This document shows, in pieces, positions 18,168-61,439 of a DNA stretch of 64,000 bases. The stretch is taken from positions 113,653 through 177,652 of the forward strand of contig JBMONO010000034.1 in assembly GCA_049323655.1 (NCBI GenBank). The letters are read 5' to 3'. Origin of the DNA: Thermodesulfobacteriota bacterium. GTDB lineage: Bacteria > Desulfobacterota > Desulfobulbia > Desulfobulbales > SURF-16. Every line of letters starts with the position of its first letter. Position 1 is the first letter of the stretch. A program made the position numbers and the translations under genes. The notes below the pieces were generated by a model, which was not told where the DNA came from, ran no database searches, and worked only from the letters and a program-made list of their open reading frames with translations.

Positions 18168-18488
18168 TCAGCTCTTGTCGCTGCGCATGATGCCGTAGGG
18201 AACGATGACATCCATTTCCCGCAGTTTCTGGCCGAGCTCCTCGAGGGTGATCTTGACCAGGCCGTACTTTTCGACATTGCCGTCGGGAATGCTGTAGATT
18301 TCGCCTTCCATGTCGCGGATCCAGTCGATGTTTTCCTTGTGGTATTCCGTCATCTGCTCTTCTTCGATTTCGTTGTTGATGACGACGCCGTAGGCGTACA
18401 TGTTTTCAACGGCAAGGCCAAGGGCGGATCTGACGCCATCCAGGATATACTCGCGGCTGGGGTACATAAAGCAAACTTTTTTTGACAT
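18168..18488 (-). CDS. DsrE/DsrF-fold protein (chp1 of the YTD-type cluster, DsrF/TusC-like)
   Basis: 106 aa. ALGLAVENMYAYGVVI block typical of the DsrE/F/H fold. No obvious active-site Cys. Lies between the dsrE-like gene and the mini dsrH-like gene. Confidence 0.6.
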   Translation of the reverse strand: MSKKVCFMYPSREYILDGVRSALGLAVENMYAYGVVINNEIEEEQMTEYHKENIDWIRDMEGEIYSIPDGNVEKYGLVKITLEELGQKLREMDVIVPYGIMRSDKS

Positions 18489-18906: not shown

Positions 18907-19164
18907 CTATTTTTTCTTGATGAAGAAACGGAAGTAGCCGGATTCTTCTTTCTCGCCCACGAACTCATGACCGGCCCTGGTGCACCAGCCCGGCAGGTCG
19001 TTGCGGGAACCGGGATCGGTGCCGAGGATTTCGAGGATCTGGCCGGAGCTGATTTTGTCGATTTCCTTTTTGGTCCGCAGCAGGGGCATGGGGCAGCTCA
19101 ATCCTTTCGCGTCAAGGGTACGATCTGCTTTGATATCGGCCGGTGCTTGTTTAAAGTCGCTCAT
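18907..19164 (-). CDS. tusA: TusA-family sulfurtransferase
   Basis: 85 aa. Canonical LDAKGLSCPMPLLRTKK motif (CPxP). Confidence 0.9.
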   Translation of the reverse strand: MSDFKQAPADIKADRTLDAKGLSCPMPLLRTKKEIDKISSGQILEILGTDPGSRNDLPGWCTRAGHEFVGEKEESGYFRFFIKKK

Positions 19165-19549
19165 TGATTCCTCCTTAACAACGGGTTTTCATTAACTAGC
19201 ATTTGCGCTTCCACAAAGCCTGGCGAAAGATCACTCTGTGCACCAGGCAGCCATGATTGACAAACATTTCAGCGAAAATAACGACAAAAAATCACTTAAC
19301 AAGAAAGAAATGTTCTGTCAAGGCGAAAAATGAACGGTAATTCAGGCCTGGCCGAAACCTGTTGTTTGTACCTATTTCCTGAACGAAATCCCATTGATAA
19401 ACTTACTTGACAAATTTTTTTGCCGAGAGTAAAGGAGTTTGAATGACAAGTTTGGCACTTTATTAATGAGTTCCTTTGAGGAGAGGTTCAGGCGGGAGTG
19501 GCACCCCGTCTCGAGAGGAAACATTAATTCAATAATGGGAGAGAAGAGT

Positions 19550-20794
19550 ATGAGCGAGGAAAGCGTTTTCGGCAGCAAAGTGAAGGGGCTGTACAAGGCC
19601 CTCTGCCAGGAGGAGTGGAATGCCACGATGACCGGCATCATGGTGGCCCTGTTCTCCATCCTGATCATGGCGTGGTGGCGACCATGGGGGGCGGTGGGTG
19701 CCATCCGCAACTGGGGCGACTGGATCCTCTACGGCGTGGCCAGCGGTCTCGGCACCGAGGCTGGCTTCTTCACCTATTTCAGCGAAGCGCCGTCCGGCAT
19801 TTTATCAAATACCGGCTCGGTCATCGGTATCGGTTTTGTTGCCGGCGCCTTTATTTCGGCCTGCCTGGGCAATGATTTCGCCCTGCGCATTCCGCCGGTG
19901 CTGGAGATGTGCAAGGCCCTGGTCGCCGGTGTTTTCATGGGTATCGGCGCTGCCCTGGCCGGCGGCTGTAATGTCGGCGGTTTTTACAACGCCATCGGCA
20001 ATCTGTCCGCCCATGGCTTTGCCATGTGGCTCGGTCTCGTTATCGGTGTTATCATCGGTCTGAAATACATCTACTGGGAGATGGAGAACATCAGCTGGGG
20101 CAGCGGCGGTGCGAAGACCATTGAATTTCCCAAAGGGTTGAACGGGCTGCTGGGCGTCGTCGCCCTGGTTGCCCTGATCGCCGGCGCCTATATCTACGCC
20201 GGCAACGAGGACAGCGACTACATGGCCTCCCTCGGCGGCATCATCCTCATCGCCGCCGGACTCGGCTACTCCATGCAGCGCGGCCGCTGGTGCATGATCC
20301 AGGGTTTCCGTGAGCCGCACATGACCGGCAACTGCACCATGGCCAAATCCGTGGCACTGAGCATCTTTATCGTCGCCCTTGGTGCGGTGGTGCTCAAATA
20401 CGGGGTGCCGGTTCGGCTGGACGGCGATCCGGTCCTCGGCCCCATGAATTACGTCCGCGGCACCTTCGGCTGGGGCGGCGTGGTCGGCGGCATTGTTTTC
20501 GGTTTCGGCGCCATGCTGGCCGGCGGTTGCGGTACCGGCACCCTGTGGCGGGTCGGCGAAGGTCAGATCAAGCTGTGGATTGTCGTGCCGGTTTTTGCCG
20601 TCAGCAACTCCATCATCACCGCCTGGTTCATTGACCGCGAATTCGAGGCGGACGGTGTCCTTGGGAAGTATGTATTTCTGCCCGATGTCTTCGGTTTCGG
20701 CGGTACCCTTTTTCTCATCGGTGGCTTTCTGCTCGCCTGGTATCTCATTGTCGACTGGAACGAGGAATCGAACAAGTTGATCGTCGAGATGTAA
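19550..20794 (+). CDS. yedE: YeeE/YedE-family sulfur-compound transporter
   Basis: Polytopic membrane protein with repeated GGC(N/G)xG motifs (LAGGCNVGG, LAGGCGTGT). Start moved to ATG 19550, which follows GGAGAG. Confidence 0.85.
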   Translation: MSEESVFGSKVKGLYKALCQEEWNATMTGIMVALFSILIMAWWRPWGAVGAIRNWGDWILYGVASGLGTEAGFFTYFSEAPSGILSNTGSVIGIGFVAGAFISACLGNDFALRIPPVLEMCKALVAGVFMGIGAALAGGCNVGGFYNAIGNLSAHGFAMWLGLVIGVIIGLKYIYWEMENISWGSGGAKTIEFPKGLNGLLGVVALVALIAGAYIYAGNEDSDYMASLGGIILIAAGLGYSMQRGRWCMIQGFREPHMTGNCTMAKSVALSIFIVALGAVVLKYGVPVRLDGDPVLGPMNYVRGTFGWGGVVGGIVFGFGAMLAGGCGTGTLWRVGEGQIKLWIVVPVFAVSNSIITAWFIDREFEADGVLGKYVFLPDVFGFGGTLFLIGGFLLAWYLIVDWNEESNKLIVEM

Positions 20795-38204: not shown

Positions 38205-41200
38205 TCAGTCGTCGTTTTGCAGCGCCCGGCGAACACTGTTGGCCAGATCCCGCCGATTGATGGGTTTGAGGATGAGTTCGCGGATGCCGGCCCTGTTGAT
38301 CTCGTCCAGGGGCAGGCCGGCATCAAAACCGGTGCAGAGCAGGACAGGCAGGTCCGGGCGAATCTCACGTGCCCTGATGGCCAGCGTGATACCGGTCATG
38401 CCCGGCATGGTGTAATCGGTGATGAGCAGATCGATCTCATCGGCATGCTGGCGGACATAGGCAAGCGCCTCCCGGCTGTCGGTGATGCCGGCCACCCGGT
38501 AGCCGAGCATTTCCAGGATCTGCCGGTTGACATCGACGAGCAGCTCCTCGTCATCAACAAAGAGAATCCGCTCGGTGCCGCCCGGGATACCGGTGTCGCT
38601 CGGCACCATGTTCGCCCCCGGCTGGCCGTGGTACCGCGGCAAATAGACGGCAAATGAACTGCCCATCCCGAGCTCGCTGTGGACGGTGATGGTGCCGCCC
38701 AGCCGCTGGACAATGCCGTGCACCACAGCCAGGCCCATGCCGGTGCCCTCACCCTCGCCCTTGGTGGTGAAAAAAGGCTCGAAGATCCGCTCGGTCATCT
38801 CCGCCGTCATGCCGTGCCCGGTGTCGCTGACTGTCAGCCGGATAAAGGGCCCGGGCACGATGCGGGGATGCAGCCGGGCAAAATCGGCATCAAGCTCGAC
38901 ATCGATCAGGGAAATATCGAGGATGCCGCCATCCGGCCCCATGGCGTGGGCGGCATTGGCGCAGAGGTTCATGATGATCTGATGGAGTGAGGTGGGGTCG
39001 GCGACCACCACCGACTCGGAGGAAAAATCGGACCGGATGACGATGGTTGAGGGCAACGATGCCTTCAGCAGCTTCATCGTCTCTTTGGCGATGATCATGG
39101 GCTGGATCGGCTGCGGCTGCATATCGGTGCGGCGACTGAAGGCGAGGATCTGTTTGACGAGATCCCGGGCACGACCGGCGGCCTCGAGAATCCTGGTCAC
39201 GCAGCGACCGGGGCGGGATTCGGCCCCGACGTCGAGACGGGCGATCTCGGCAAAACCGAAAATGGCGGCCAGGATATTGTTGAAGTCATGGGCAATGCCG
39301 CCGGCCAGGGTGCCGATGGCCTCCATTTTCTGGGACTGGCGGAACATCGCCTCCACCCTGAGCTGTTCAGTGACATCACGCATGACAAAGACATAGCCCA
39401 TCCGTTCGCCGTGCGCATCGACAATGGGCGAGACGGTACTGTCCGCCTCGATGGAGCGTCCGTCCCTGCAACGGCCGGTCAAGCGGCCGCGCCACACTGT
39501 TCCCTCCTGTATCGTTTCCCACAATGTCGCAAAACGAGGGTCCTTGTTGTCTTCTGCCAGAAAATGATAGGGCTGGCCTGCGGCCTCTTCCGCATCATAG
39601 CCGGTGATGGCGGTAAAGGCCGGATTGACATAGCCGATGACGCCGCTGTTATCGGTAATGACAATCTCCTCCGCCGCCTGCTCAATGGCCGAGGCCAGGC
39701 GGACCAGCTGTCGTTCCGCCTGTTTGCGGGCGCTGATGTCCCGAACGATGGCCTGTTGCAGTGTGGTGCCGCCGAGTCGCAGCACCGAGAGACTCACCTC
39801 GGCTTCAAAAAGGGTGCCATCCTTTTTTTTGCACAGCCATTCAAAGAACTGTTGCTTTTCGGAGAGGGTGCGTCGGAGGCGAATACGTGCCTGGTCGCGG
39901 GATGAGGTGCCGTCCGGCTGGATGGCGGGCGAAAAGTCCTCGGGCCGGGCGTCGATCATTTGTTCGCGGCTGACCCCGAAGAGATGCAACGCTTTGGCGT
40001 TGCAGTCGAGGCAGTGGCCGTCCTGCAGGATGATAATAGCGTCGCTGGCCGACTCAAAAAGGGAACGGTATCGCTCTTCCTTTACGGCCAGTTCTTCCAT
40101 GACTCGATTGCGTTCGGCGACCATCCGGTTTGCCGCCGCGGCCATCCGCTGGAATTCGGTGTATTCCAGAGCATCGGGATCAATGGCATGGATGCCGGAG
40201 GCGGCGCGTTCAAAAAAGGCGGTAAGGGTGGCAATGGTGTCGTATGTTTTTCTGCTGATCCGGTGGGCGATGAAAAAAGAGATGGCAAGAAAGCTGGCCA
40301 GGACGACAAGGATACTGACCAGATTATCCTCCATGCGCTCCCGCATGGACTGCCGGGCCTGCCGGAGGGCGATGTCGATGTCGTCGAGAAGCTCGCCGGC
40401 ACCGATATACCAGTGCCAATCCTCCACCGGCAGCACATAACTGCTTTTGATCCCTCCGGGCATATCGGCAAATTCGGGCATCTCGTAATAGATGTGGCCG
40501 CCGCCGGTGCGGGCGAGATCGATGAGCTCGCCGACCACACGTCTGGCGCGCGCATCGCCGGTTTGCAGGATGTTTTCGCCGCGGCCCGGACCGGCAATGA
40601 TGAGTCCGTCCCACTGGCCGGCGAAGACGTAGCCCTGGCGGCCGAAACGGAGCTGGCTCATCCACTGGGCCACCTCCTGCCGGATCGCGGTTTCCATGTC
40701 CTCCTGATAGGCGCCGGTACCGATGAACCAGTCAAACGGGGCAAAATGCTTGATATAGGATATTTTCCTGAAGGTGTCGCCCTGGTGGCCCGGTCGGGTC
40801 CAGTTGTAAGAGTAAAAGCCCTCCCCTTTTTTTCTGACAATGGCGATCATATCACGGATCACATAGGCGCCGTCCGTATCCTGCAGATCAAGGAGATTTT
40901 TCCCTTCCAGCTCCGGCCGGTCGGCGAAAAGCATCTCAATGCCGTCAAGCGATGTGATGAAATAGTAGCCCTGGTCGTTGTCGTAGCGCAGGGGCCGCAA
41001 GGCCTCGCGGATCATCTCCTTGAGTTCTGCCGCGGATCTGTCGTGCTGGTAGGTGGCATAGAGATGTGAGGCAAGGGCATGGGCCTCATTGACCCTGGCC
41101 CGGATGGAAGTCCGAAGCCGCTCCTCGGTCTGTGATCGTTTAAAACGGATGAAGGCGGCAACGTCCTCCACCTGTTTTTTTATCTGTTCCTTGTGCCCGG

Positions 41201-41354
41201 CCAGCATGCGGGCCCGGGTCACGTCCGCCTCGCGGTTCAGGCGGGAATATTCCTGGAAAATCCAGACGCCGCCGAGCAGACCGATGGGAAGGGCAACCAG
41301 CAGGCCCATGTAGAGGGCCAGGGTGCGGGAAAAACTGCGCGGGGTGATGGACAT
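38205..41354 (-). CDS. Hybrid sensor histidine kinase (Cache-like periplasmic domain, PAS repeats, HisKA/HATPase, C-terminal receiver)
   Basis: 1049 aa. Two TM segments around a Cache-like domain. Several PAS blocks. H-box GIAHDFNNIL. G-boxes. REC domain (ILFVDDEE...DYTMPGMTG). Confidence 0.9.
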   Translation of the reverse strand: MSITPRSFSRTLALYMGLLVALPIGLLGGVWIFQEYSRLNREADVTRARMLAGHKEQIKKQVEDVAAFIRFKRSQTEERLRTSIRARVNEAHALASHLYATYQHDRSAAELKEMIREALRPLRYDNDQGYYFITSLDGIEMLFADRPELEGKNLLDLQDTDGAYVIRDMIAIVRKKGEGFYSYNWTRPGHQGDTFRKISYIKHFAPFDWFIGTGAYQEDMETAIRQEVAQWMSQLRFGRQGYVFAGQWDGLIIAGPGRGENILQTGDARARRVVGELIDLARTGGGHIYYEMPEFADMPGGIKSSYVLPVEDWHWYIGAGELLDDIDIALRQARQSMRERMEDNLVSILVVLASFLAISFFIAHRISRKTYDTIATLTAFFERAASGIHAIDPDALEYTEFQRMAAAANRMVAERNRVMEELAVKEERYRSLFESASDAIIILQDGHCLDCNAKALHLFGVSREQMIDARPEDFSPAIQPDGTSSRDQARIRLRRTLSEKQQFFEWLCKKKDGTLFEAEVSLSVLRLGGTTLQQAIVRDISARKQAERQLVRLASAIEQAAEEIVITDNSGVIGYVNPAFTAITGYDAEEAAGQPYHFLAEDNKDPRFATLWETIQEGTVWRGRLTGRCRDGRSIEADSTVSPIVDAHGERMGYVFVMRDVTEQLRVEAMFRQSQKMEAIGTLAGGIAHDFNNILAAIFGFAEIARLDVGAESRPGRCVTRILEAAGRARDLVKQILAFSRRTDMQPQPIQPMIIAKETMKLLKASLPSTIVIRSDFSSESVVVADPTSLHQIIMNLCANAAHAMGPDGGILDISLIDVELDADFARLHPRIVPGPFIRLTVSDTGHGMTAEMTERIFEPFFTTKGEGEGTGMGLAVVHGIVQRLGGTITVHSELGMGSSFAVYLPRYHGQPGANMVPSDTGIPGGTERILFVDDEELLVDVNRQILEMLGYRVAGITDSREALAYVRQHADEIDLLITDYTMPGMTGITLAIRAREIRPDLPVLLCTGFDAGLPLDEINRAGIRELILKPINRRDLANSVRRALQNDD

Positions 41355-48733: not shown

Positions 48734-49729
48734 ATGAGAGTCCTGTATCCCTTCATTGCAGTCTTAGCACTGATCGCGGTTGCCTTCTTGGGAGGGAAGG
48801 TAACGGGTCTGCAGTATCTGTTGGGGGTGGTGCTACCCTACCTGGCATTCGGTGTGTTCATTGTCGGTTTTGTCAACCGGGTCGTGCAGTGGGCAAAATC
48901 ACCGGTGCCATTCCGGATTCCGACGACATGCGGGCAGGAGAAATCGCTGCCTTGGATCAAGCGGAACAGGTTTGAATGTCCGCACACCAAGCTGGAGGTG
49001 GCAGTGCGAATGTTCCTGGAAATCGTGCTGTTCAGGTCTCTGTTCCGCAACACCAAGGCGGAGATCCATGACGGGCCGAAACTGGTGTACGGCTCCAGCA
49101 AATTTCTTTGGCTCTTTGCCCTGCTCTTTCACTACTCCTTTCTGGTCATCGTTCTTCGCCACCTGCGGCTCTTTACCGAGCCCATTCCCTTTTTCGTCCC
49201 CCTGATCGAGTTTGCCGACGGCATGCTGCAGATCGGCGCCCCGCGTCTCTATCAAACCGACATCATCTTTCTCGGGGCCCTGGCCTTCCTTTTCCTTCGC
49301 CGGGTGTCGCTGCGGCAGATCCGCTACATTTCCCTGCCGGCCGATTATTTTCCGCTCTTTCTCATCTTCGCCATCGGCGTCACCGGTCTGCTGATGCGGT
49401 ATGTCTACCGGGTGGACATCGCTGCGGTGAAGATGATCACCGCTGGGTTGGCCTCCTTTTCCCCGACCCTGCCGGAAGGCATTCACCCGATCTTCTTCAT
49501 CCATGTCGCCCTGGTGTGCACATTGATGATCTACTTCCCGTTCAGTAAGCTGATGCACATGGGCGGCGTCTTTTTGAGCCCGACCCGCAACATGTCCAAC
49601 AACAGCCGTGAGGTACGGCACATCAACCCGTGGAACGATCCGGCAATCAAGCCCCATTCTTATGCGGCCTACGAAGATGAGTTCAGAGAATTCATGAAAG
49701 GTGCCGACATCCCAGTGGAAAAGGAATAA
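48734..49729 (+). CDS. dsrM: DsrM, membrane di-heme b subunit (NarI-like) of the DsrMKJOP complex
   Basis: 331 aa polytopic NarI-like protein, immediately upstream of dsrK. Confidence 0.9.
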   Translation: MRVLYPFIAVLALIAVAFLGGKVTGLQYLLGVVLPYLAFGVFIVGFVNRVVQWAKSPVPFRIPTTCGQEKSLPWIKRNRFECPHTKLEVAVRMFLEIVLFRSLFRNTKAEIHDGPKLVYGSSKFLWLFALLFHYSFLVIVLRHLRLFTEPIPFFVPLIEFADGMLQIGAPRLYQTDIIFLGALAFLFLRRVSLRQIRYISLPADYFPLFLIFAIGVTGLLMRYVYRVDIAAVKMITAGLASFSPTLPEGIHPIFFIHVALVCTLMIYFPFSKLMHMGGVFLSPTRNMSNNSREVRHINPWNDPAIKPHSYAAYEDEFREFMKGADIPVEKE

Positions 49730-49734
49730 GGAAA

Positions 49735-51360
49735 ATGGCGATTCCAAAAGCAAATCAATTAGGTGTGAGTGTGGTAAGGGAGCCATCCCTTATGACCGGC
49801 GCCATCCCGAAAGAGGATTGGATGGATGTGCCGGCGGTTTTCAGGGAGGGCAATTTCTGTTACCCGGCAAAGAAATCCATTGTCGAATATCATAAGTTTC
49901 CGAACCCGCGCGAGTGGAGCCCCGATCAGGACGACTGGAAACTGCCGGAAGGCTGGGAAGAGATCATCCTGAAAGGCCTCAAGGAACGGCTCGACAAGTT
50001 CCGTTCCCTGCGCCTGTTCATGGACATCTGTGTCCGTTGCGGCGCCTGCGCCGACAAGTGCCACTTCTTCCTCGGCACCGGCGACCCGAAAAACATGCCG
50101 GTGCTGCGGGCCGAACTGCTGCGCTCGGTTTACCGTAACGACTTCACCACCGCCGGCAAGCTGCTCGGCAAGATGGCCGGCGGCCGGCCCATGACCTTCG
50201 GCGTGCTGAAGGAATGGTTCATGTACGCTTATCAGTGCACGGAATGTCGGCGCTGTTCGGTCTTCTGCCCCTACGGCATCGACACCGCCGAGGTGACCAT
50301 GATGCTGCGCGAGCTGCTCCACCTGGTCGGGGTCGGCACCAACTGGATCCTCGAGCCGGCGGCCAACTCGAACCGCACCGGCAACCACATGGGCCTCCAG
50401 CCCCATACCTTCAAGGACAACATCGGCTACCTGTGCGACGATATCGAGACCATCACCGGCATCAAGATCACCCCGACCTTTAACCGGAAGGGTGCCGAGG
50501 TGCTTTTCATCACCCCGTCGGCCGATGTCTTCGCCGATCCGGGCATTTACACCGCCATGGGCTACCTGCTGCTCTTTGAGCACATCGGCCTTGATTATAC
50601 CTGGTCGACCTATGCCTCAGAGGGCGGCAACTTCGGTCTCTTCACTTCGAACGAGATGATGAAGAAGCTCAACGCCAAGCAGTACGCCGAGGCCAAGCGG
50701 CTCGGGGTCAAGTGGATCCTCGGCGGCGAGTGCGGCCACATGTGGCGGGTGCTCCATCAGTACATGGACACCATGAACGGGCCGGCCGATTTCCTTGAGG
50801 TGCCGAAATCGCCGATCACCAACACGGTGTTCGACAACGCCGCCTCCACCAAGATGATCCATATCAGCGAGTTTACCGCTGACCTGATCAGAAACAACAA
50901 GCTCAAAATCGATCCGACCCGCAATGCCCACCGCATCCCCACCTGGCACGACTCCTGTAACACGGCCCGCGCCATGGGTCTGCTCGAGGAGCCGCGCTAC
51001 ATCCTTGACCACGTTGTTCCCAAATGGCACGAGATGCCGGAAAACACCATCCGGGAAAAGACCTTTTGCTGCGGCTCCGGCACCGGCCTCAACACCGGCG
51101 AGATCATGGAACTCCGCATGCGTTCCGGTCTGCCCAGGGCCAATGCGGTGCGTCACGTCGCCGACCGCTTCGGGGTCAACACCCTGGCCTGTGTCTGCGC
51201 CATCGACCGCGCCACCCTGTCGGCTCTGATGGATTATTGGAACCCGGATGTCAAGGTGTGCGGTCTTTCGGAACTGGTGGGTAACTCGCTCATCATGGAC
51301 GGCGAAAAAGTCAGGGAAACGGATCTGCGTTTTGATCCCCTGGTAGGAATGGAGGGATAA
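49735..51360 (+). CDS. dsrK: DsrK, HdrD-like catalytic Fe-S subunit
   Basis: 541 aa. Ferredoxin-type clusters (CVRCGACADKC, CTECRRCSVFCP) and CCG-domain cysteines (FCCGSGTG). Confidence 0.92.
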   Translation: MAIPKANQLGVSVVREPSLMTGAIPKEDWMDVPAVFREGNFCYPAKKSIVEYHKFPNPREWSPDQDDWKLPEGWEEIILKGLKERLDKFRSLRLFMDICVRCGACADKCHFFLGTGDPKNMPVLRAELLRSVYRNDFTTAGKLLGKMAGGRPMTFGVLKEWFMYAYQCTECRRCSVFCPYGIDTAEVTMMLRELLHLVGVGTNWILEPAANSNRTGNHMGLQPHTFKDNIGYLCDDIETITGIKITPTFNRKGAEVLFITPSADVFADPGIYTAMGYLLLFEHIGLDYTWSTYASEGGNFGLFTSNEMMKKLNAKQYAEAKRLGVKWILGGECGHMWRVLHQYMDTMNGPADFLEVPKSPITNTVFDNAASTKMIHISEFTADLIRNNKLKIDPTRNAHRIPTWHDSCNTARAMGLLEEPRYILDHVVPKWHEMPENTIREKTFCCGSGTGLNTGEIMELRMRSGLPRANAVRHVADRFGVNTLACVCAIDRATLSALMDYWNPDVKVCGLSELVGNSLIMDGEKVRETDLRFDPLVGMEG

Positions 51361-51364
51361 TTTT

Positions 51365-51760
51365 ATGTACGATAAAGGGAAAATTATTCCCGGCCTGATT
51401 ATTTTCGTCGGCCTGATGTTGTTTGCCATCTTCAACAACGCCGGGAAGAAAGTGGAGGCGCCCAAGGTTGAAAAACCGGTCGGGTACAAGGAATGTGTGA
51501 AGCCGGTCAAGTACATGAAGGAATCACACATGGAACTGCTCAATGTATGGCGCGATGAAGTCATCCGTGAGGGAAAACGCGAAATGATTGAAGTTGAGGG
51601 CAAACTGTACGAGAAAAGCCTGCAGAACGGCTGTATGCATTGCCATACCAGCAAGAAGAAATTCTGTGATGTTTGCCATACCTTTGCTTCTGTGTATCCA
51701 TACTGCTGGGACTGCCATATCGCACCACTGGCGGACAAGGCACTTGAGGAGGCGAAATAA
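51365..51760 (+). CDS. dsrJ: DsrJ, periplasmic tri-heme cytochrome c
   Basis: 131 aa. N-terminal membrane anchor. Three CxxCH motifs (CMHCH, CDVCH, CWDCH). Confidence 0.88.
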   Translation: MYDKGKIIPGLIIFVGLMLFAIFNNAGKKVEAPKVEKPVGYKECVKPVKYMKESHMELLNVWRDEVIREGKREMIEVEGKLYEKSLQNGCMHCHTSKKKFCDVCHTFASVYPYCWDCHIAPLADKALEEAK

Positions 51761-52602
51761 TGGACAGCTCACGAAGAACATTCCTGAAGATCGCCGGGAT
51801 TTCCGCAGTGGCAGGCGTTGCCGCTCCGGCTGCCCTGAACATGCTGATGAATAAAAACGCCCAGGCCTCGGCCGGCGGCGGCCACGGCGCTCCGGCTGCC
51901 GGCGGCCATGGCGGCCATGGTGAACCGGTTCCCACCGGCAAGCGGTACGGTCTGGTCATCGATGCCCGGAAATTTCATGAAACACCCGGGCTGGCAGAGA
52001 AGTGCATCGAGGCCTGTCACACCTATCATAACGTTCCGGACTTCGGCAACAAGAAGGACGAGATCAAGTGGATCTGGCAGGAACCCTTCATCAACACCTT
52101 CCCGGACGAAAGCCATTACAAGAAGGACGAGCAGATACTCGCCATGAAGTTTCTGGTTACCTGCAACCACTGCGACAATCCGCCCTGCGTGCGTGCCTGC
52201 CCGACCAAGGCAACCTTCAGGAACGAGGACGGGGTGGTCATGATGGACTTTCATCGCTGCATCGGTTGCCGCTTCTGTATGGCCGCCTGTCCGTATGGTT
52301 CACGCAGCTTCAACTGGCGTGATCCGCGAGGATCGCAGGATGGCGTTCCTTTCATCAAGAACCTGGAACCCAAGTTTCCCACCAGGATGCGCGGTGTCGT
52401 CGAGAAGTGCAGTTTCTGCGCCCATCGGCTGGCGCACAATCAACTGCCTCTCTGCGTCGAGGCATGTGGAGATACGAAGGCTATGGTCTTTGGTGACATG
52501 AACGATCCGAACTCCGAGGTATCCCAGGTGCTGCGGTCGCGGTTCACCATTCAACGGAAACCCTCCTTGGGCACCAAGCCCTCGGTCTTTTACATCATCT
52601 AA
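51760..52602 (+). CDS. dsrO: DsrO, periplasmic Fe-S subunit (Tat-exported)
   Basis: Twin-arginine signal SRRTFLK. Multiple ferredoxin Cys clusters (CNHCDNPPCVRACP, CIGCRFCMAACP). Confidence 0.9.
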   Translation: MDSSRRTFLKIAGISAVAGVAAPAALNMLMNKNAQASAGGGHGAPAAGGHGGHGEPVPTGKRYGLVIDARKFHETPGLAEKCIEACHTYHNVPDFGNKKDEIKWIWQEPFINTFPDESHYKKDEQILAMKFLVTCNHCDNPPCVRACPTKATFRNEDGVVMMDFHRCIGCRFCMAACPYGSRSFNWRDPRGSQDGVPFIKNLEPKFPTRMRGVVEKCSFCAHRLAHNQLPLCVEACGDTKAMVFGDMNDPNSEVSQVLRSRFTIQRKPSLGTKPSVFYII

Positions 52603-52613
52603 GGTGATCCGAT

Positions 52614-53795
52614 ATGTTAGAAAAATCGCTCAAAGGTAACGTGGGATACTGGGCCTGGGTTCTGCTCCTGCTCAGTGTCATTGGCGTGGGCGTCATCTGC
52701 TATGTTGTCCAGTTCAATTACGGTCTTGGCGCCACCGGCATGAGCCGGGACGTGACCTGGGGGGTTTACATCTCCCAATTCACCTTCCTCGTTGGTGTCG
52801 CTGCCGGTGGTCTGATGCTGGTGCTGCCCTACTATCTTCATCACTACAAGGAATTCGGTCGGATCACCATTCTCGGTGAGTTCATGGCCATTGCCGCTGT
52901 CGCCATGTGTCTGCTCTTCATCATGGCCGATCTCGGTCAGCCCATGCGGGCGCTCAACGTGGTCCTTCACCCGACCCCGAACTCCATGCTGTTTTACGAC
53001 ATGATCGTTTTGAACGGCTACCTGCTGCTCAACATCATCTGTGGTTGGGTCATTCTTCACTCGGAGTACAAGGGCATCAAGTATCCTTCCTGGGTCAAGC
53101 CCTTTATTTACATCTCCATCCCCTGGGCCGTCAGTATCCACACCGTCACCGCCTTTCTGTACTGCGGTCTGCCCGGCCGCCATTTCTGGCTTACCGCCAT
53201 TCTGGCCCCTCGCTTTCTCGCCTCCGCCTTTGCCGCCGGTCCTTGCCTGCTGATGGTAATCGCATTGATCATGAAGCAGGTGACGAAGTTTGACGTCGGC
53301 CAGAAGGCGCAGGACAAGCTGGTGACCATTATCGGTTACGCCGCTATACTGAACTTCTTCTTTCTCGGCTGTGAGATGTTTGTCGCCTACTACAGCCAGA
53401 TCCCCGGGCACATGCATACCCTCGACTACCTGTTCTGGGGCCTGACCGATCACACCACCGGTGAGGTCTACAATAATCTGGTGCCCTTTATGCGCGCCTC
53501 GGTGGTCATGGGTTTTGCCGGCATCGGCCTCATTTTTGTCGCCCGCAACAAAAAATCGGACGGACTGCTTGCCCTCTCCTGTATCCTGATCTTTGTTTCC
53601 TTCTGGATCGATAAGGGGCTTGGGCTGGTGCTCGGGGGTTTTGTGCCGAACGGTCTTGAGCAGATCACCGAGTATTACCCAACCGCGGTGGAGCTCGGTA
53701 TTACCGCCGGTATCTGGGCGACCGGTTTTCTGATCATCACCGTGCTTTACAAAGTGGCGATATCCGTCAAGCTGGAAAACGAGAAAACTGCCTAA
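52614..53795 (+). CDS. dsrP: DsrP, NrfD/PsrC-like integral membrane subunit
   Basis: 393 aa with about 10 TM segments. Last gene of the dsrMKJOP order. Confidence 0.9.
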   Translation: MLEKSLKGNVGYWAWVLLLLSVIGVGVICYVVQFNYGLGATGMSRDVTWGVYISQFTFLVGVAAGGLMLVLPYYLHHYKEFGRITILGEFMAIAAVAMCLLFIMADLGQPMRALNVVLHPTPNSMLFYDMIVLNGYLLLNIICGWVILHSEYKGIKYPSWVKPFIYISIPWAVSIHTVTAFLYCGLPGRHFWLTAILAPRFLASAFAAGPCLLMVIALIMKQVTKFDVGQKAQDKLVTIIGYAAILNFFFLGCEMFVAYYSQIPGHMHTLDYLFWGLTDHTTGEVYNNLVPFMRASVVMGFAGIGLIFVARNKKSDGLLALSCILIFVSFWIDKGLGLVLGGFVPNGLEQITEYYPTAVELGITAGIWATGFLIITVLYKVAISVKLENEKTA

Positions 53796-53986: not shown

Positions 53987-54217
53987 ATGACTTGCGCATG
54001 TCAAAAAAAAGATCAACTATCTTCAGAAAACAAAACAATTCTTGCCGCCATCTCGGCTATCGGCGGCCCGTGTGGCAGCAAGGAGATCGCCGAAAAAGCA
54101 GGACTTGATGGCAAAACAGTAACTAACAACCTGAAAAACCTTAAAAAATGCGGATTAATCGACAGCCCGGTGCGGTGTAAATATGCCATCACCGCTGCTG
54201 GCCAGTCTGCCCTCTAA
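53987..54217 (+). CDS. Small winged-helix (MarR/ArsR-like) DNA-binding protein
   Basis: 76 aa. wHTH-like SKEIAEKAGLDGKTVTNNLKNLKKCGLI. N-terminal CAC. Confidence 0.5.
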   Translation: MTCACQKKDQLSSENKTILAAISAIGGPCGSKEIAEKAGLDGKTVTNNLKNLKKCGLIDSPVRCKYAITAAGQSAL

Positions 54218-54241: not shown

Positions 54242-54571
54242 ATGCAGATACAGATTGATAAAAACGTCGTTGAGATGATGCCTGAAAACAACGATGAAAC
54301 CGCGGCCCTGAACGCGTTGTGGCGCATCATGGTTGACTGCATGGGTGAGAACAAGATGCTCAACCCCATCGGTGAATATATCCCGGAAAAGAAGAATCTT
54401 GCCCGTTTCGTCATTGAAGGGGTGCCGGGCGGTATCACCGAACGGGCCGTCGAACAGAGTGCGGCGACAGACGCTACCTACCTCTGCGCCATTTGTAACA
54501 AGTACATGAAGGTCAAGGCCGGCGAAAATCTGCCGATGTGCTGCGGCAGAATCATGGAAAATATCGACTGA
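54242..54571 (+). CDS. Hypothetical protein with C-terminal Cys knuckles
   Basis: 109 aa. C-terminal CAICNKY-x14-PMCCG suggests a zinc/iron-binding ribbon. No family recognised. Confidence 0.45.
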   Translation: MQIQIDKNVVEMMPENNDETAALNALWRIMVDCMGENKMLNPIGEYIPEKKNLARFVIEGVPGGITERAVEQSAATDATYLCAICNKYMKVKAGENLPMCCGRIMENID

Positions 54572-54940: not shown

Positions 54941-54976
54941 AGAAGGCGTCGGGTAACCGACGCCTTCTCCTTTTCC
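54941..54976 (+). terminator. Rho-independent terminator downstream of rubredoxin
   Basis: 12-bp stem AGAAGGCGTCGG / CCGACGCCTTCT, GTAA loop, then CCTTTTCC. Confidence 0.7.
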
Positions 54977-55202
54977 GCTTCTCATTCCACCAGGACTCAC
55001 GGTCCATCCCGGCTTTCCCCTTGACAGACCGGCCGTCACATTATAAGCAGAGGGATGATGTGCACAGGGCCGCCGATCGTCAGGAGACCGTCAGGCCCTG
55101 CCGCATCGGCAGGCAACGACCTGCCTTTTCCCCTGTCGGGCCTCGCGCGCTCGGCAGTCATCTCACCGTGCCCCGGCGGCACGAATCGGACCGGAACGGC
55201 TT

Positions 55203-57533
55203 ATGGAATACAAGAGCATCCTCGACCTGATCGGCAACACCCGAATTGTGCCCATCAACCGCCTCAACCCGCACAAGAGCGTTACGATCTACGTCAAACT
55301 CGAATCCGGTAATCCGGGCGGCTCGGTCAAGGACCGCATCGCCCTGTCCATGATCGAAACCGCCGAAGAGCGTGGAGAACTGACCCCTGACAAGATCGTT
55401 CTGGAGGCGACCAGCGGCAACACCGGCATCGGACTCGCCATGGTCTGCGCGGTTAAGGGTTACCGGTGCCAGCTGGTGATGCCGGAATCGGCCAGTATTG
55501 AGCGGCGAAAGATCATGGAGGCCTATGGGGCCGAAATTCTCCTGACCCCCGGCAAACGAGGTACCGACGGCGCCATCGAGCGTGCCTATGCCATGGCCCG
55601 TGAGCATCCGGACCAGTATTTTCTCACCGATCAGTTCAACAACGAGGCCAACTGGATGGCCCACGTCAAGACCACCGGGCCGGAGATCTGGGAGCAGACC
55701 AATGGCCGGGTGACCGATGTCGTCGCCACCCTGGGCACCACCGGCACGGTGATGGGGATCTGCCGCTACTTTGCCGACAACCATCCCGAGGTGCGGATTA
55801 CTGCGGTCGAGCCCTTCCTCGGCCATAAGATCCAGGGCCTGAAAAATATGAAAGAGTCGTATAAGCCTGGTATCTTTGATAAAACAAAACCATTCCAGAT
55901 CATCAACGTCCCGGACGAGGAGGCCTTCCGGTACGCCCGCCTGCTGGCTCGCAAGGAGGGAATATTTGCCGGCATGAGTTCCGGCGCGGCCATCTGCGCG
56001 GCGCTGGCGGTGGCGGATCAATTGGCGGAGGGTATGATTGTTGTTATCCTGCCGGACAGCGGCGACAAATATCTCAGCACTGAACTTTTCACCGCCAAAA
56101 AGGAAAAAAAGGCAAAGACCACCGAAGGGCTCCGTTTTTTCAATACCCTCAGCCGCAAAAAGGAAATCTTCCAGCCCCAGTCCGGCAATCGGGTCACCTT
56201 CTACGCCTGCGGCCCGACCGCCCATGAACTGGCCAACCTGGCCCACTGTCGCCGTTTTGTTGTCGCCGATCTCATTCATCGGCTTTTGCGGCAGAAAGGC
56301 TATGATGTCCAGTACTACATGAACTTCACCGATCTCGACGACAACACCATCAGCGGCGCGGCCCGGGCCGGTCGGCCGTTGGCCGAGTTCACCGGATTCT
56401 ATATCGAGGAATTCATGAAGGACATGGAGGCCCTCCGCCTGCTGCCGGCCACCGGCTATCCGCGTGCCTCGGAGCATGTCGAGGAGATGATCACCATCGC
56501 CCACGAGCTGGTCCACAAGGGCTATGCCTATGAACAGCACGGCTCGGTGTATTTCGATATCAGCAAGTTCAGGAAGTACGGCAAGCTGTCCCGGGTGCCG
56601 CTCGACAAGATCAAGGTCGGCATGACCGTTGATCTCGACGACTACGAAAAGAACAATCCGCTGGACTTCACCCTGATGAAGCGCTCTACCCTGGCGGAGC
56701 TGAAAAGCGGCGTCTTTTATCAGACCGACCGGGGCAACATGCGACCCGGCTGGCATATCGAGTGCGCGGCCATGACCCTCCACTATCTCGGCGAGACCAT
56801 GGATATTCACACCAGCGGCCGGGATCTGCTCTTTCCCCATCATGAAAACGAAAACGCCATTGCCGAGAGCCTGACCGGCAAGCCGCTGGCCAGATTCTGG
56901 ATCCACAGCGAGTTACTGCTGGTGGAGGGCCGCAAGATGAGCGCGGACAACAACAACGTCATCACCCTGCGCCAGCTTGTCGAGCAGGGCTATACCCCCC
57001 GGGAGATTCGTTTCTTTCTCATCCGCAACCACTATCGCAAGCCGATCGATTTTTCGGTGAAGAAGCTCGACAGCGCGCGGGTGAGTCTCAAACGCCTCGA
57101 CGAATTCACCCGCAAGCTCCAGTGCCTGCCGCCGGATATGCCTCATCCCAAGGTGGCGGCCTATGTCTCGGATATGGAGGAGTCCTTTCAGGCCGCCCTT
57201 GAAGACGACATGAACGTCTCCCGGGCGATCGGCGCCATCTTCGACTTTATCAAGAAAGTCAATCCCGTCATCAGCGCAGGTCAGCTCGACCGGGACCAGA
57301 AGGAGTATATCCGCGAATCCCTGGAAAAGATCAACGCCATCCTCAATGTCCTGCGCCTGGAGGAGTGTCCGCTCGCCCCGGAGATCGACAGGCTGATCCG
57401 GGAGCGGGAGCAGGCCCGCAAGGAAAAGGACTGGGCCAGGGCCGATGATGTCCGCAACCGGCTTGCCGAGCAGGGCATCACGGTGATCGACACCGCCAAG
57501 GGACCGGTCTGGAAGGAAAACGACCGGGAGTAA
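55203..57533 (+). CDS. Fusion protein: cysteine synthase (CysK/CysM-type PLP enzyme) + full-length CysRS-like domain with degenerate class I motifs
   Basis: 776 aa in one frame. aa 1-297 are CysK-like (PLP Lys in GGSVKDR, TSGNTGIGLA, GTTGT). A Lys-rich linker TAKKEKKAKTTEG follows. From aa ~310 the sequence is CysRS-like (LRFFNTLSRKKE, GWHIECAAM, DIHTSGRDLLFPHHENE, anticodon-binding tail), but HIGH reads NLAH and KMSKS reads KMSAD. Confidence 0.85.
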   Translation: MEYKSILDLIGNTRIVPINRLNPHKSVTIYVKLESGNPGGSVKDRIALSMIETAEERGELTPDKIVLEATSGNTGIGLAMVCAVKGYRCQLVMPESASIERRKIMEAYGAEILLTPGKRGTDGAIERAYAMAREHPDQYFLTDQFNNEANWMAHVKTTGPEIWEQTNGRVTDVVATLGTTGTVMGICRYFADNHPEVRITAVEPFLGHKIQGLKNMKESYKPGIFDKTKPFQIINVPDEEAFRYARLLARKEGIFAGMSSGAAICAALAVADQLAEGMIVVILPDSGDKYLSTELFTAKKEKKAKTTEGLRFFNTLSRKKEIFQPQSGNRVTFYACGPTAHELANLAHCRRFVVADLIHRLLRQKGYDVQYYMNFTDLDDNTISGAARAGRPLAEFTGFYIEEFMKDMEALRLLPATGYPRASEHVEEMITIAHELVHKGYAYEQHGSVYFDISKFRKYGKLSRVPLDKIKVGMTVDLDDYEKNNPLDFTLMKRSTLAELKSGVFYQTDRGNMRPGWHIECAAMTLHYLGETMDIHTSGRDLLFPHHENENAIAESLTGKPLARFWIHSELLLVEGRKMSADNNNVITLRQLVEQGYTPREIRFFLIRNHYRKPIDFSVKKLDSARVSLKRLDEFTRKLQCLPPDMPHPKVAAYVSDMEESFQAALEDDMNVSRAIGAIFDFIKKVNPVISAGQLDRDQKEYIRESLEKINAILNVLRLEECPLAPEIDRLIREREQARKEKDWARADDVRNRLAEQGITVIDTAKGPVWKENDRE

Positions 57534-61362: not shown

Positions 61363-61439
61363 GCGCCCGTAGCTCAGCTGGATAGAGCACCGGCCTTCTA
61401 AGCCGTAGGTCGCAGGTTCGAATCCTGCCGGGCGCGCCA
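61363..61439 (+). tRNA. tRNA-Arg (anticodon TCT), CCA encoded
   Basis: The cloverleaf can be read directly: acceptor GCGCCCG/CGGGCGC, D arm GCTC-AGCTGGATA-GAGC, anticodon arm CCGGC-CTTCTAA-GCCGT, T arm GCAGG-TTCGAAT-CCTGC, discriminator G, then CCA. Confidence 0.93.

Follow-up and report, generated by a model that had tools for sequence, protein, structure and literature searches.

A CysM-type cysteine synthase fused to a divergent CysRS-like module in Desulfobulbales

The fusion gene and its parts

The window, by which we mean the whole 64,000-nt stretch of DNA analyzed, carries a gene whose product begins with a complete PLP-dependent cysteine synthase of the CysM type, continues with a disordered linker of about 13 residues, and ends in a full-length CysRS-like module. 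The parts of the gene are the following.

55203..57533, + strand: whole fusion ORF, ATG start, uninterrupted, 776 residues plus stop (ORF listing and translation)
55203..56090, + strand: CysM-type PLP cysteine synthase half, residues 1-296 (PALP, E 9e-74; TIGR01136; Foldseek)
56091..56129, + strand: charged disordered linker TAKKEKKAKTTEG, residues 297-309 (pLDDT, variability, dN/dS)
56130..57122, + strand: CysRS-like class I catalytic domain with CP insertion, residues 310-640 (tRNA-synt_1e, Foldseek)
57186..57503, + strand: anticodon-binding region, DALR_2 and CysS_C (Pfam)

A sequence-only reading of this DNA had described one 776-codon frame joining a CysK/CysM-type PLP enzyme to a full-length CysRS-like protein, and the ORF, Pfam, and NCBIfam results confirmed it. 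On the 776-residue protein, Pfam placed PALP at residues 7-285 (E 9e-74), tRNA-synt_1e at 323-625 (E 2e-90), DALR_2 at 662-717, and CysS_C at 724-767. The linker was found between the halves as proposed; pLDDT falls below 50 at residues 289-307, and the linker sequence differs across the family.

The fusion and its altered motifs proved to be family-wide. All of the best 120 database clusters contain the full-length fusion (120/120), and the protein occurs in at least 80 species-representative Desulfobulbales genomes, including cultured strains, cable bacteria, and complete genomes, and more than 120 protein clusters show this architecture; an identical protein is also present on the Logan contig SRR28237300_98166. 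Identities across the Desulfobulbales broadly follow taxonomy, and the fusion is a core gene of the whole order. The dN/dS within Desulfobulbales was 0.061 in CysM, 0.074 and 0.075 in the catalytic and anticodon-binding parts of the CysRS-like half, respectively, and 0.18 in the linker. All four segments are well below 1 and thus under purifying selection, strongly so in the three domains (0.06-0.08). This pattern indicates that the CysRS-like half is functional and no relic.

Both halves match known folds. Foldseek aligned the N-terminal half to CysM 2jc3 (TM 0.91) and the CysRS-like half to 8qhp (TM 0.92, rmsd 1.9 Å), with 1u0b, a tRNA complex, also matched. The AlphaFold model of the fusion (pTM 0.57) predicts no interdomain geometry, as none of its contacts between the domains is confident.

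That the fusion is an artefact of sequencing or assembly, or contains a decaying pseudogene domain, is scarcely credible. Two split relatives (L092 and L093) do resemble frameshifted fusions in MAGs; against this stand the same architecture in at least 80 species-level genomes, complete ones among them, as well as in over 120 protein clusters, and a dN/dS of about 0.07 in both CysRS-like parts. Because of the number of genomes, the 120/120 best clusters, the purifying selection, and the Foldseek matches, the fusion is neither a chance product nor an assembly artefact, and a sequencing or assembly error as its source was ruled out.

The database entries examined all label the fusion "cysteine--tRNA ligase". 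No description of the fusion or of the paralog group was found in the searchable literature, and CysRS-like copies coupled to a cysteine synthase are apparently an undescribed group.

Genomic context

Upstream of the fusion, two further features were located.

54941..54976, + strand: terminator-like hairpin with T-rich tail downstream of the rubredoxin gene, lying between the upstream genes and the fusion
55021..55047, + strand: putative promoter-like TTGACA-N15-TATAAG, conserved with locus L003, whose N15 spacer falls outside the 16-18 nt range of the promoter scan

The sequence-only reading had connected the fusion with persulfide trafficking through the neighboring dsrMKJOP and rubredoxin genes. 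This connection was not supported: of the 82 loci, only 12 have dsrMKJOP beside the fusion, and these come from close relatives; a terminator-like hairpin stands between dsrP and the fusion. The adjacency is lineage-specific; an analogous hairpin and T-run follows dsrP in L002, L005, L008, L009, and L014. At other loci, the conserved neighbors are glnA, glnD, glnB, and amtB, and no thiol-pathway genes were found among the conserved neighbors.

Across 88 loci, none has a linked tRNA gene, and no second CysRS homolog occurs within the 64,000-nt window or within 10 kb at 82 loci. Seed searches for canonical cysS matched archaeal and Syntrophales enzymes only. The proteome table of D. dismutans has at most one cysteine--tRNA ligase row, which may stand for either type. 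The species also has a serine acetyltransferase and a cysteine synthase A encoded on its own.

The CysM half

The motifs of the N-terminal half are listed below; the first three are exactly those described from the sequence.

55317..55337, + strand: GGSVKDR with the PLP Schiff-base Lys43, invariant in 120 homologs and in all fused and split partners
55410..55439, + strand: Asn/substrate loop TSGNTGIGLA, residues 70-79 (homolog alignment, PALP partner comparison)
55734..55748, + strand: Gly loop GTTGT, residues 178-182, PLP phosphate binding (homolog alignment, PALP partner comparison)
55809..55880, + strand: subfamily-specific lid motif EPFLGHKIQGLKNMKESYKPGIFD, residues 203-226 (alignment, PALP partner comparison)

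GMSSGAA, the SSG motif, is also present and conserved. In NCBIfam, this half belongs to the cysKM subfamily (TIGR01136, 371 bits, above the cut-off of 344.15) and misses the CysM equivalog cut-offs (TIGR01138, 363.6 versus 394.2; NF008735, 353 versus 413). The closest solved structures are Salmonella and E. coli CysM (E 3e-81). Within the lid motif, Q211-Y220 is invariant in family alignment A1, and low pLDDT at 207-224 suggests a mobile loop. Judged by its motifs, the CysM half looks like a working, catalytically intact enzyme.

The CysRS-like half

The motif register was set by HMMER alignment to the solved CysRS structures 8qhp, 3tqo, and 1li5, and 125 CysRS representatives served as the canonical comparison set. 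Residue numbers of the form H37 or K269 are the canonical ones.

56205..56219, + strand: ACGPT, Cys336 = Zn ligand C28 (alignment)
56235..56246, + strand: NLAH in place of HIGH, residues 345-348 (HMMER alignment)
56343..56354, + strand: NTIS in place of KIIK, residues 381-384; Asn381 (= K73) and Thr382 invariant in the family
56610..56627, + strand: CP1 acceptor-end motif IKVGMT, Thr475 in place of R168 (clade synapomorphy)
56748..56765, + strand: GWHIEC, W517 = W205, C521 = Zn ligand C209 (alignment)
56808..56819, + strand: canonical HGGG loop, here reading HTSG, G226 to S
56832..56852, + strand: FPHHENE, H546 = H234 and E550 = E238, both Zn ligands (alignment)
56934..56948, + strand: KMSAD in place of KMSKS, residues 578-582 (HMMER alignment)

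The NLAH, NTIS, and KMSAD substitutions that had been noticed were upheld by profile alignment across the family, and the alignments to 8qhp, 3tqo, and 1li5 offered no alternative register with canonical HIGH, KIIK, or KMSKS residues. The first position of HIGH is N, H, T, D, or R in the family, and its final His is invariant. Only the first His is diagnostic, because 82 of the 125 canonical representatives have Asn at the fourth position; H37 itself is present in 124/125, and the fusion lacks it. In KMSKS, K266 is kept and position 270 nearly always carries an acidic residue (D or E); position 269 may be A, P, Q, R, S, K, T, or H, and the second Lys, canonical in 125/125, is absent from the fusion. 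Positions 37 and 269 are no longer under selection, since both vary freely within the family.

Besides K269 (125/125 canonical) and H37 (124/125), the sites replaced family-wide comprise G226 (125/125), Q241 (123/125), S270 (121/125), W194 (120/125), R168 (112/125), and K73 (117 K and 6 R of 125). W184 and G201 are changed as well, but both served as clade-defining criteria. The CP1 motif, which has a role in recognition of the first tRNACys base pair (PMC5389517), has K or R just before the Thr475 position in most of the family.

Other parts are preserved. As the sequence-only reading had it, the Zn/cysteine-binding residues are kept (C336, C521, H546, E550), together with W205; the ligand motifs are near-invariant in the Desulfobulbales family. 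The anticodon-binding region is likewise retained, according to Pfam, alignment, and its dN/dS, and the canonical C-terminal consensus residues are invariant in the family. Of 69 positions conserved at 90% or more in canonical CysRS, 56 are kept, including K266-M-S, D229, T68, and W205, so that the degenerate adenylation signatures still hold K266-M-S, D229, and one His of HIGH. Invariant new basic residues, R351 (= position 43) and K/R577 (= position 265), adjoin the two signatures and could be compensatory.

From the altered signatures, it had been concluded that aminoacylation should be crippled. The residue losses are real, but the conclusion is overstated. Human TyrRS is functional with KMSSS. 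The K73A, K76A, K266A, and K269A mutants of EcCysRS reportedly still sustain cell-free translation (PMC10655014). The mutant data also favor the main alternative, which is possible though less likely than the reading preferred below: the fusion would be a genuine CysRS with a remodeled ATP site, possibly the only one in these genomes, and CysM would pass newly made cysteine straight to charging. The fusion passes the cysS equivalog TIGR00435 (409.3 bits, cut-off 340), has every CysRS domain in CysRS-like geometry, and conserves the Zn pocket, T68, W205, D229, and K266-M-S. Selection on the anticodon-binding domain, the order-wide core status with identities broadly tracking taxonomy, and the single possible ligase row of D. 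dismutans point the same way. R351, K/R577, and a near-invariant acidic residue at 582 could offset the lost H37 and K269, e.g., through a bound metal. Against an active CysRS, however, K269 and H37, nearly universal in canonical enzymes, drift freely here, even to Pro, and about ten more near-invariant sites are replaced, G226 and the CP1 acceptor-end motif among them. K or R at position 265 is also common among canonical archaeal-type enzymes, so K/R577 is not a specific compensation.

The PALP-coupled clade

The CysRS-like half falls within a monophyletic clade (NJ bootstrap 79/100), which we read as an old lineage of CysRS paralogs. Among canonical enzymes, it is closest to the archaeal type (HIGN), not to the bacterial HIGH type. 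All clade members with a readable upstream context are fused to, or lie directly after, a PALP of one subfamily. P0121, P0285, and P0133 are fusions, L085 and L089 are clean two-gene versions, L092 and L093 are likely frameshifted fusions, and L091 is a fragment. The lid motif is common to all PALP partners of the clade, unlike Salmonella CysM.

The catalytic motifs of the PALP partner are intact in every case. In several clade lineages, the other partner has lost residues essential to an aaRS: C209 to S or A, E238 to V or T, W205 to L, K266 to Q, or the second half of KMSKS, which is deleted. The shared function of the pair cannot be tRNA charging, because only the CysRS-like partner decays. 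Sister branches without Zn ligands cannot be CysRS for that reason, which also weighs against an active CysRS in the fusion. Some other clade members keep the PALP coupling and have apparently lost recognizable anticodon-binding domains.

Coupling to a canonical CysRS does occur. A Nanoarchaeota PALP-CysRS fusion (P0127) is canonical at every diagnostic site and lies outside the clade in the tree, and P0167, a hexapeptide-repeat, possibly CysE-like, domain joined to CysRS, is also canonical at every diagnostic site. Both favor the active-CysRS alternative in that cysteine synthesis and charging can be coupled.

Interpretation

The clade copies suggest a role in helping or controlling cysteine synthesis, not in ordinary tRNA charging. 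We tentatively favor a CysRS-like half that acts as a HisZ-like accessory module binding cysteine and probably tRNACys, which is close to what had first been proposed, i.e., cysteine and perhaps tRNA binding without conventional charging. The PALP-coupled clade and the loss of aaRS essentials elsewhere in it speak for this. The CysRS-like half would most likely not be the ordinary cysteine-tRNA ligase of the cell. Product cysteine would be held in the preserved Zn pocket, tRNACys would probably be bound through the preserved anticodon-binding domain, and occupancy of pocket or tRNA site would regulate the PLP half or hand off the cysteine. Cysteine and tRNA binding, and weak or absent adenylation, are predicted from conserved and replaced residues; the output would be regulation or hand-off, and a separate housekeeping CysRS would presumably be present.

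The accessory reading draws on PALP motifs that stay intact while the CysRS-like partner decays, near-invariant canonical sites replaced in a monophyletic and always PALP-coupled clade, purifying selection on both CysRS-like parts with an invariant Zn/cysteine pocket, the separate cysteine pathway genes of D. dismutans, and, by analogy, the HisZ/HisG precedent. Against it are the passed TIGR00435 cut-off with 56/69 conserved positions retained, the strong selection on the anticodon-binding domain, possible compensation by R351 and K/R577, the seed searches, whose matches included no canonical cysS from a fusion-bearing genome, the at most one ligase row of D. dismutans, and a model without a confident interdomain contact.

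The conserved tRNA-binding parts also admit an unlikely alternative, in which the CysRS-like half holds aminoacyl-tRNACys and the PLP half acts by beta-replacement on the tRNA-bound residue, either making Cys-tRNACys from a precursor, as SepCysS does, or turning Cys-tRNACys into a persulfide or another derivative. One polypeptide here combines a Zn pocket, an anticodon-binding domain, an intact beta-replacement enzyme, and a flexible linker, and the CP1 acceptor-end motif is altered. Cyclodipeptide synthases offer a parallel, as they resemble class I aaRS and act on aa-tRNA with no need for ATP. Their class I aaRS ancestry has been predicted and their aa-tRNA substrates noted (PMC2922099). The tRNA-dependent synthesis of cysteine by a PLP enzyme also has precedent (PMC5424206). 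However, Parcubacteria and Chloroflexi were the only bacteria with SepRS reported in that survey, no locus-linked tRNA gene exists in 88 loci, other clade members keep the PALP coupling apparently without recognizable anticodon-binding domains, and the AlphaFold model predicts no interdomain geometry. That the fusion performs a bacterial, SepRS-independent, tRNA-linked cysteine chemistry, with fold-type II PLP beta-replacement on a tRNACys-docked residue, is quite improbable.

An MshC-like ATP-dependent cysteine ligase with a non-tRNA acceptor, e.g., for low-molecular-weight thiol synthesis, is very improbable. MshC is a known CysRS paralog, Foldseek matched the MshC structure 3c8z (TM 0.87), and the cysteine pocket is kept. 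On the other side, TIGR03447 gave 216.7 bits versus a cut-off of 485.1, and MshC retains the adenylation signatures that are degenerate here. Of the 477 residues of the CysRS-like query, the solved MshC chains (413-414 aa) cover only 10-341, the catalytic part, and the anticodon-binding region outside this alignment is retained under selection; the conserved neighbors give no hint of a thiol pathway.

If the fusion is a paralog with another role, its annotation across the order would be systematically wrong, because it is named "cysteine--tRNA ligase" and passes the cut-off of TIGR00435, which we take to be one of the GTDB bac120 markers, and it could be scored as that marker gene. The accessory reading, if true, would provide a second clear case after HisZ/HisG of an aaRS copy partnering the synthesis of its amino acid, and the kept tRNA-binding module raises the idea of cysteine synthesis tuned to tRNACys status. 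If the fusion is instead an active CysRS, its interest for enzymologists would lie in a class I synthetase that naturally works with neither the second lysine of KMSKS nor the first histidine of HIGH. Under either reading, it is a core gene of the Desulfobulbales, including cable bacteria and sulfur disproportionators, in which cysteine and sulfide handling is central. Were the tRNA-linked chemistry true, translation-coupled sulfur chemistry would be a dedicated encoded function in these sulfur-disproportionating and cable bacteria, yielding Cys-tRNACys from a precursor or persulfidated cysteinyl-tRNA.

Comparison with known systems

The N-terminal half resembles CysM/O-acetylserine sulfhydrylase B (2jc3, 2bhs), with about 47% identity and all PLP and substrate motifs. 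It differs in its lid (HKIQGLKNMKESY versus SSIPGIRRWPAEY in CysM), in its C-terminal CysRS-like partner, and in missing the CysM equivalog cut-off. The CysRS-like half shares fold, domain order, Zn ligands, W205, and the anticodon-binding domain with canonical CysRS (TIGR00435; 1li5, 1u0b, 8qhp), but H37, K73, R168, W184, W194, G201, G226, Q241, K269, and S270 are replaced, and the fusion to CysM is a further difference. The PALP and CysRS domains of P0127 stand in the same order as in the fusion, whereas in P0167 the domain N-terminal to CysRS is a different one.

MshC and the CysRS* of some Desulfobacterales are, like the fusion module, diverged CysRS copies with new roles; unlike it, neither has been reported as coupled to a cysteine synthase. 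The CysRS* enzymes described by Mukai et al. have no anticodon-binding domain and are linked to selC*/selB* (PMC5389517). CP1 motif changes occur in both CysRS* and the fusion. From the reported SelC* aminoacylation, CysRS* would retain its adenylation motifs. An identity with CysRS* was rejected, as the fusion has an anticodon-binding domain and no tRNA or selB nearby.

CysRS has also been described as a cysteine persulfide synthase (CPERS; Akaike et al., reviewed in PMC10655014), which, like the fusion, links CysRS, PLP, and sulfur chemistry. Of the four reported PLP-binding lysines, only K266 is reliably kept in the fusion family; Asn invariably takes the place of K73, and at the variable positions 76 and 269 Lys occurs in a minority of members only. 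The Cys ligands, reportedly dispensable for CPERS, are invariant in the fusion family. A CPERS-type CysRS was rejected on this account, the lost lysines and invariant Cys ligands being the opposite of the pattern expected of a CPERS-specialized enzyme.

The closest parallel to the accessory reading is the HisRS paralog HisZ, which has no adenylation activity and serves as the histidine-sensing regulatory subunit of HisG (PMC9437257). In both systems, and clade-wide in ours, an aaRS paralog is physically coupled to a biosynthetic enzyme of its cognate amino acid, the adenylation signatures are no longer conserved, and the amino-acid pocket is retained. HisZ is not known to have an anticodon-binding domain, whereas that of the fusion is retained under selection. 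The coupling here is usually covalent, and the partner is a PLP enzyme at the last step of the pathway, not the first. Adenylation loss and allostery, finally, are for the fusion predictions, unlike in HisZ/HisG.

Domain architecture of the fusion protein

The sequence-only reading described one uninterrupted frame joining a cysteine synthase to a CysRS-like protein. This was borne out by the analysis, in which the fusion is a single unbroken ATG-started ORF of 776 residues (55203-57533, +). The same reading held that the anticodon-binding region is kept, and Pfam agreed by matching both DALR_2 and CysS_C.

Pfam domains of the fusion protein (residues)
7-285, PALP (PLP-enzyme domain of cysteine synthase type), E 9e-74
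323-625, tRNA-synt_1e (CysRS catalytic domain), E 2e-90
662-717, DALR_2
724-767, CysS_C (CysRS anticodon-binding domain)

Against the NCBIfam models, the fusion scored 409 bits for the cysS equivalog (curated cut-off 340) and 371 bits for the cysKM subfamily (curated cut-off 344); the CysM equivalog cut-off was not reached. The MshC model gave 217 against a cut-off of 485, which makes it very improbable that the CysRS-like half is an MshC-like ligase.

The AlphaFold model, built from an input alignment of 52 sequences, had a mean pLDDT of 83.7, with two domains predicted confidently and the linker between them (residues 289-307) disordered. The orientation of the domains to each other carried no confidence (pTM 0.57); with the linker disordered, the interdomain geometry is thus uninformative. 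Foldseek matched the N-terminal half to a CysM structure (2jc3, TM 0.91) and the CysRS-like half to CysRS structures (8qhp, TM 0.92; 1u0b, with tRNA), and none of the matches was a solved structure spanning both halves.

Signature changes in the Desulfobulbales family

The HMMER alignment with solved CysRS upheld the altered signatures, with NLAH under HIGH, NTIS under KIIK, and KMSAD under KMSKS, as well as the retention of the Zn/cysteine ligands C28, C209, H234, and E238 (E. coli numbering), along with W205. We surveyed the motifs in 120 homologs of the family. At HIGH they have N/H/T/D/R-L-(S/G/A)-H, with the last His invariant and the first position free, and at KIIK they have N-T-I-x. 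KMSKS is replaced by K-M-S-x-(D/E), in which position 269 accepts almost any residue, Pro among them, and an acidic residue (D or E) nearly always occupies position 270. Essentially no variation occurs across these homologs in the Zn/cysteine motifs or in any of the CysM catalytic motifs, which had been read as intact in the window's protein.

The canonical comparison set comprised 125 representatives outside the PALP-coupled CysRS-like clade, which was defined solely by two CP-domain residues (the W184 and G201 changes) and not by the signature motifs. The residues replaced family-wide are K269 and G226 (each present in 125/125 canonical sequences), H37 (124/125), Q241 (123/125), S270 (121/125), W194 (120/125), K73 (117 K and 6 R), and R168 (112/125). 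Of the 69 positions with at least 90% conservation among canonical CysRS, 56 are retained in the family. New invariant basic residues adjoin both signatures (HIGH and KMSKS), namely R351 (position 43) and K/R577 (position 265); K/R at position 265 is also common among canonical archaeal-type CysRS.

Spread and selection

The best 120 protein clusters were all full-length fusions with 69-90% identity from Desulfobulbia and Thermodesulfobacteriota, and the source names shown for them were always "cysteine--tRNA ligase" or "cysteinyl-tRNA synthetase". The spread of the fusion, which the earlier reading had proposed to follow by homology search, reached at least 80 species-representative genomes at 60-85% identity. 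The carriers include Desulfopila sp. IMCC35008, Desulfogranum marinum DSM 2058, Desulfocapsa, Desulfofustis, Desulforhopalus, Desulfobulbus, Ca. Electrothrix, and Ca. Electronema; Desulfobulbaceae bacterium DB1 belongs to the 90% cluster of the window's own protein.

From 74 full-length coding sequences, the median dN/dS was 0.061 for the CysM half, 0.074 for the CysRS-like catalytic part, 0.075 for the anticodon-binding part, and 0.176 for the linker, all rough values with dS near saturation. Decay of the CysRS-like half is clearly contradicted by these values. An assembly error as the source of the fusion is contradicted by the species carriers, the 120 fusion clusters, and the low dN/dS, and the probability of an artefact is negligible.

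The PALP-coupled CysRS-like clade

With the CysRS-like half as query, HMMER was run exhaustively against 1.84 billion representatives, and relatives with progressively degenerate signatures ranked ahead of canonical CysRS. The changes common to the clade are R168->T, W184->L/M/F, W194->Y/F, G201->V/M/I, S210->A, G226->S, Q241->I/V/M, and K269->R or other residues. In the NJ bootstrap (100 sequences, 448 columns), support was 79% for the clade and 100% for the Desulfobulbales family, and the clade branches were about 25% longer than the canonical ones. The nearest relatives with canonical motifs are archaeal-type CysRS.

Among the clade members, P0121, P0285, and P0133 are fusions, and P0122 is a fragment. 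For all standalone clade members with readable upstream DNA, a PALP gene lies directly 5' on the same strand.

PALP genes 5' of standalone CysRS-like genes (locus, CysRS-like protein, spacing)
L085, P0277, 4-bp gap: cleanly split into two genes
L089, P0129, 2-bp gap: cleanly split into two genes
L091, P0131, 1-bp gap: only a PALP fragment, where the contig ends
L092, P0145, 20-bp overlap: truncated PALP; likely a fusion broken by a frameshift
L093, P0144, 99-bp gap: PALP ORF extends into CysRS-like sequence; likely a fusion broken by a frameshift

The PALP partners form one subfamily with 57-66% identity to the window's N-terminal half, with catalytic motifs intact in every partner and a distinctive common lid motif, EP[FY]LGHKIQGLKN[ML]KE[SA]Y.PGIF. 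Among the CysRS-like partners, C209->S/A occurs in P0126, P0133, P0163, and P0266; E238 is changed to V/T/I/A, P0144 has W205->L and K266->Q, and the second half of KMSKS is deleted in P0131. Since the PALP motifs are always intact and aaRS essentials are lost in several branches, the aminoacylation machinery is dispensable in the pair. As judged from these sequences, its constant feature is a working cysteine-synthase-type enzyme with a CysRS-fold partner.

Loci L083 (fused P0287) and L093 (the apparently frameshifted P0144) both carry tmk followed by PALP/CysRS-like, with nusG and HU nearby, and this common synteny indicates that the pair was inherited vertically in a second bacterial lineage. 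A surE gene is found near the fusion in L083 and L084. In a 'Deltaproteobacteria bacterium' MAG (L088:2698-6621), the fusion P0285 lies between a HAD-family hydrolase (PF12710, to which phosphoserine phosphatases belong) and a CDP-alcohol phosphatidyltransferase; both neighbours may be serine-related, or the placement may be by chance.

Ordinary CysRS was also found in fused form. A PALP-CysRS fusion from a Nanoarchaeota MAG (P0127, L086:10001-12307) falls outside the clade in the NJ tree, and the 711-aa P0167 joins a hexapeptide-repeat, possibly serine-acetyltransferase-like, region to CysRS. Both are canonical at all diagnostic sites and, by their motifs, appear to be independent fusions to ordinary CysRS. 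The 858-aa P0134 has an extra DALR_2 domain before a complete, fully canonical CysRS.

Surroundings of the fusion gene

Features around the fusion in the window
48734-53795: dsrMKJOP, upstream of the fusion, preceded by an RsbRD_N protein
53987-54217 (+): MarR-like winged-helix protein, 76 aa, common to the window and L003 (44% identity)
54242-54571 (+): Cys-rich protein, 109 aa, without family match, in the window and an identical Logan contig only
54630-54794: rubredoxin, after the two small ORFs, upstream of the fusion
54941-54976: terminator-like hairpin between rubredoxin and fusion
55021-55047: promoter-like TTGACA-N15-TATAAG, conserved with L003
57545-59268 (-): umuC-like (422 aa) and umuD/LexA-like (148 aa) pair, convergent, immediately 3' of the fusion, in L003 and L004 only

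The earlier suggestion of a role tied to the dsrMKJOP/rubredoxin neighbourhood did not survive. Of the 82 loci, only 12 have the fusion next to dsr; identity is 69% or higher in each of these 12, and in them a hairpin and T-run follow dsrP. An operon or functional link was rejected on this count, on the terminator-like hairpin between dsrP and the fusion, and on the other neighbours found elsewhere. In D. dismutans (RS12150-RS12225; PMC12142623, table S1), hisA, HDOD, MBL, a hypothetical gene, RsbRD, and dsrMKJOP are kept as in L002, and pgeF, nusB, uvrA, and secB follow dsrP where the fusion would stand; the fusion was therefore relocated or lost there. From this order and the adjacency pattern, the sulfur-respiration context is synteny by descent, without a functional link. 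In a comparison with L013 for a clean deletion, the genes there proved to be different.

In other Desulfobulbales, a protein of about 160 aa, glnA, glnD, glnB, and amtB are conserved upstream of the fusion, and no downstream genes are conserved across the Desulfobulbales fusion loci. The 408-bp upstream gap gave no Rfam match for an RNA leader, and its fold was unremarkable (z = -1.3).

Several single-lineage arrangements were observed. L085:4209-7293 is a tight same-strand array of PALP, the CysRS-like gene, and a MoeB/UbaA-type E1 of the ThiF family (best NCBIfam match MoeB, 252 bits, below cut-off), which may point, for that lineage, to a protein thiocarboxylate as the sulfur donor. This link was rejected as a general feature, being restricted to L085; no E1 homolog was found in the window or any other collected locus. 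In L013:10907-13406, a znuA-like gene, whose start overlaps with the end of the fusion at its stop, precedes a znuB-like (ABC-3) gene; a zinc-uptake operon directly 3' of a Zn-dependent domain is a curious placement.

In the window, 35 kb from the fusion, a TusA gene (18907-19164, -) adjoins a YeeE/YedE-type 'sulphur transport' membrane protein (19439-20794, +), presumably the "sulfur-relay cluster" of the first reading; an unassigned 106-aa ORF lies at 18168-18488 (-). YeeE-type proteins are thiosulfate importers, and thiosulfate is a CysM substrate. The window also holds a 1049-aa ORF of high GC3 (0.76; 38205-41354, -) and, as its sole tRNA gene, tRNA-Arg(TCT) (61363-61439, +).

Search for a canonical cysS and tRNACys in the same genomes

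No second CysRS homolog was detected by tblastn in the window or within 10 kb in 82 loci, and no tRNA-Cys gene was present in 1.3 Mb of collected loci. Homology searches seeded with P0128 led to archaeal CysRS and those seeded with P0155 to Syntrophales CysRS; neither reached a standalone Desulfobulbales CysRS. The D. dismutans proteome table (PMC12142623) apparently holds, by subtraction, at most one cysteine--tRNA ligase row, with fused and standalone forms not distinguished. A text look-up in the supplements of PMC13047784, PMC12545173, and PMC6976610 gave no match for cysS rows of fusion-bearing genomes.

In the main alternative, possible if rather doubtful, the protein would still be a true CysRS whose ATP site has been remodelled; it may be the sole one of its genome and would receive cysteine directly from CysM. 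An active CysRS is supported by the equivalog score, the conservation of K266-M-S, D229, T68, and W205, the anticodon-binding domain under selection, the order-wide core status of the gene, and the apparently single D. dismutans row, to be weighed with the family-wide replacements and the losses elsewhere in the clade. Human TyrRS is functional with KMSSS. The EcCysRS mutants K73A, K76A, K266A, and K269A reportedly still support cell-free translation (PMC10655014). Chemistry on tRNA-bound substrates is an improbable further alternative.

Comparison with known systems

Searches of the open literature yielded no account of a CysRS-like protein fused to CysM or CysK; in practice, the fusion protein is annotated uniformly as cysteine--tRNA ligase. 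A 2022 review of aaRS paralogs gives, for CysRS, solely MshC and CysRS* without the anticodon-binding domain. We class the fusion with aaRS paralogs that have been drawn into the synthesis of their own amino acid. The reading that we favour, tentatively, is a HisZ-like role, in which the CysRS-like half would be an accessory of the synthase. Its Zn pocket, which is invariant, would bind cysteine, and in Desulfobulbales its anticodon-binding domain under selection would probably bind tRNACys as well; it would either regulate the CysM half, possibly by allostery, or hand off the product of that half. The precedent is HisZ, a HisRS paralog without adenylation activity, which carries histidine feedback onto HisG (PMC9437257).
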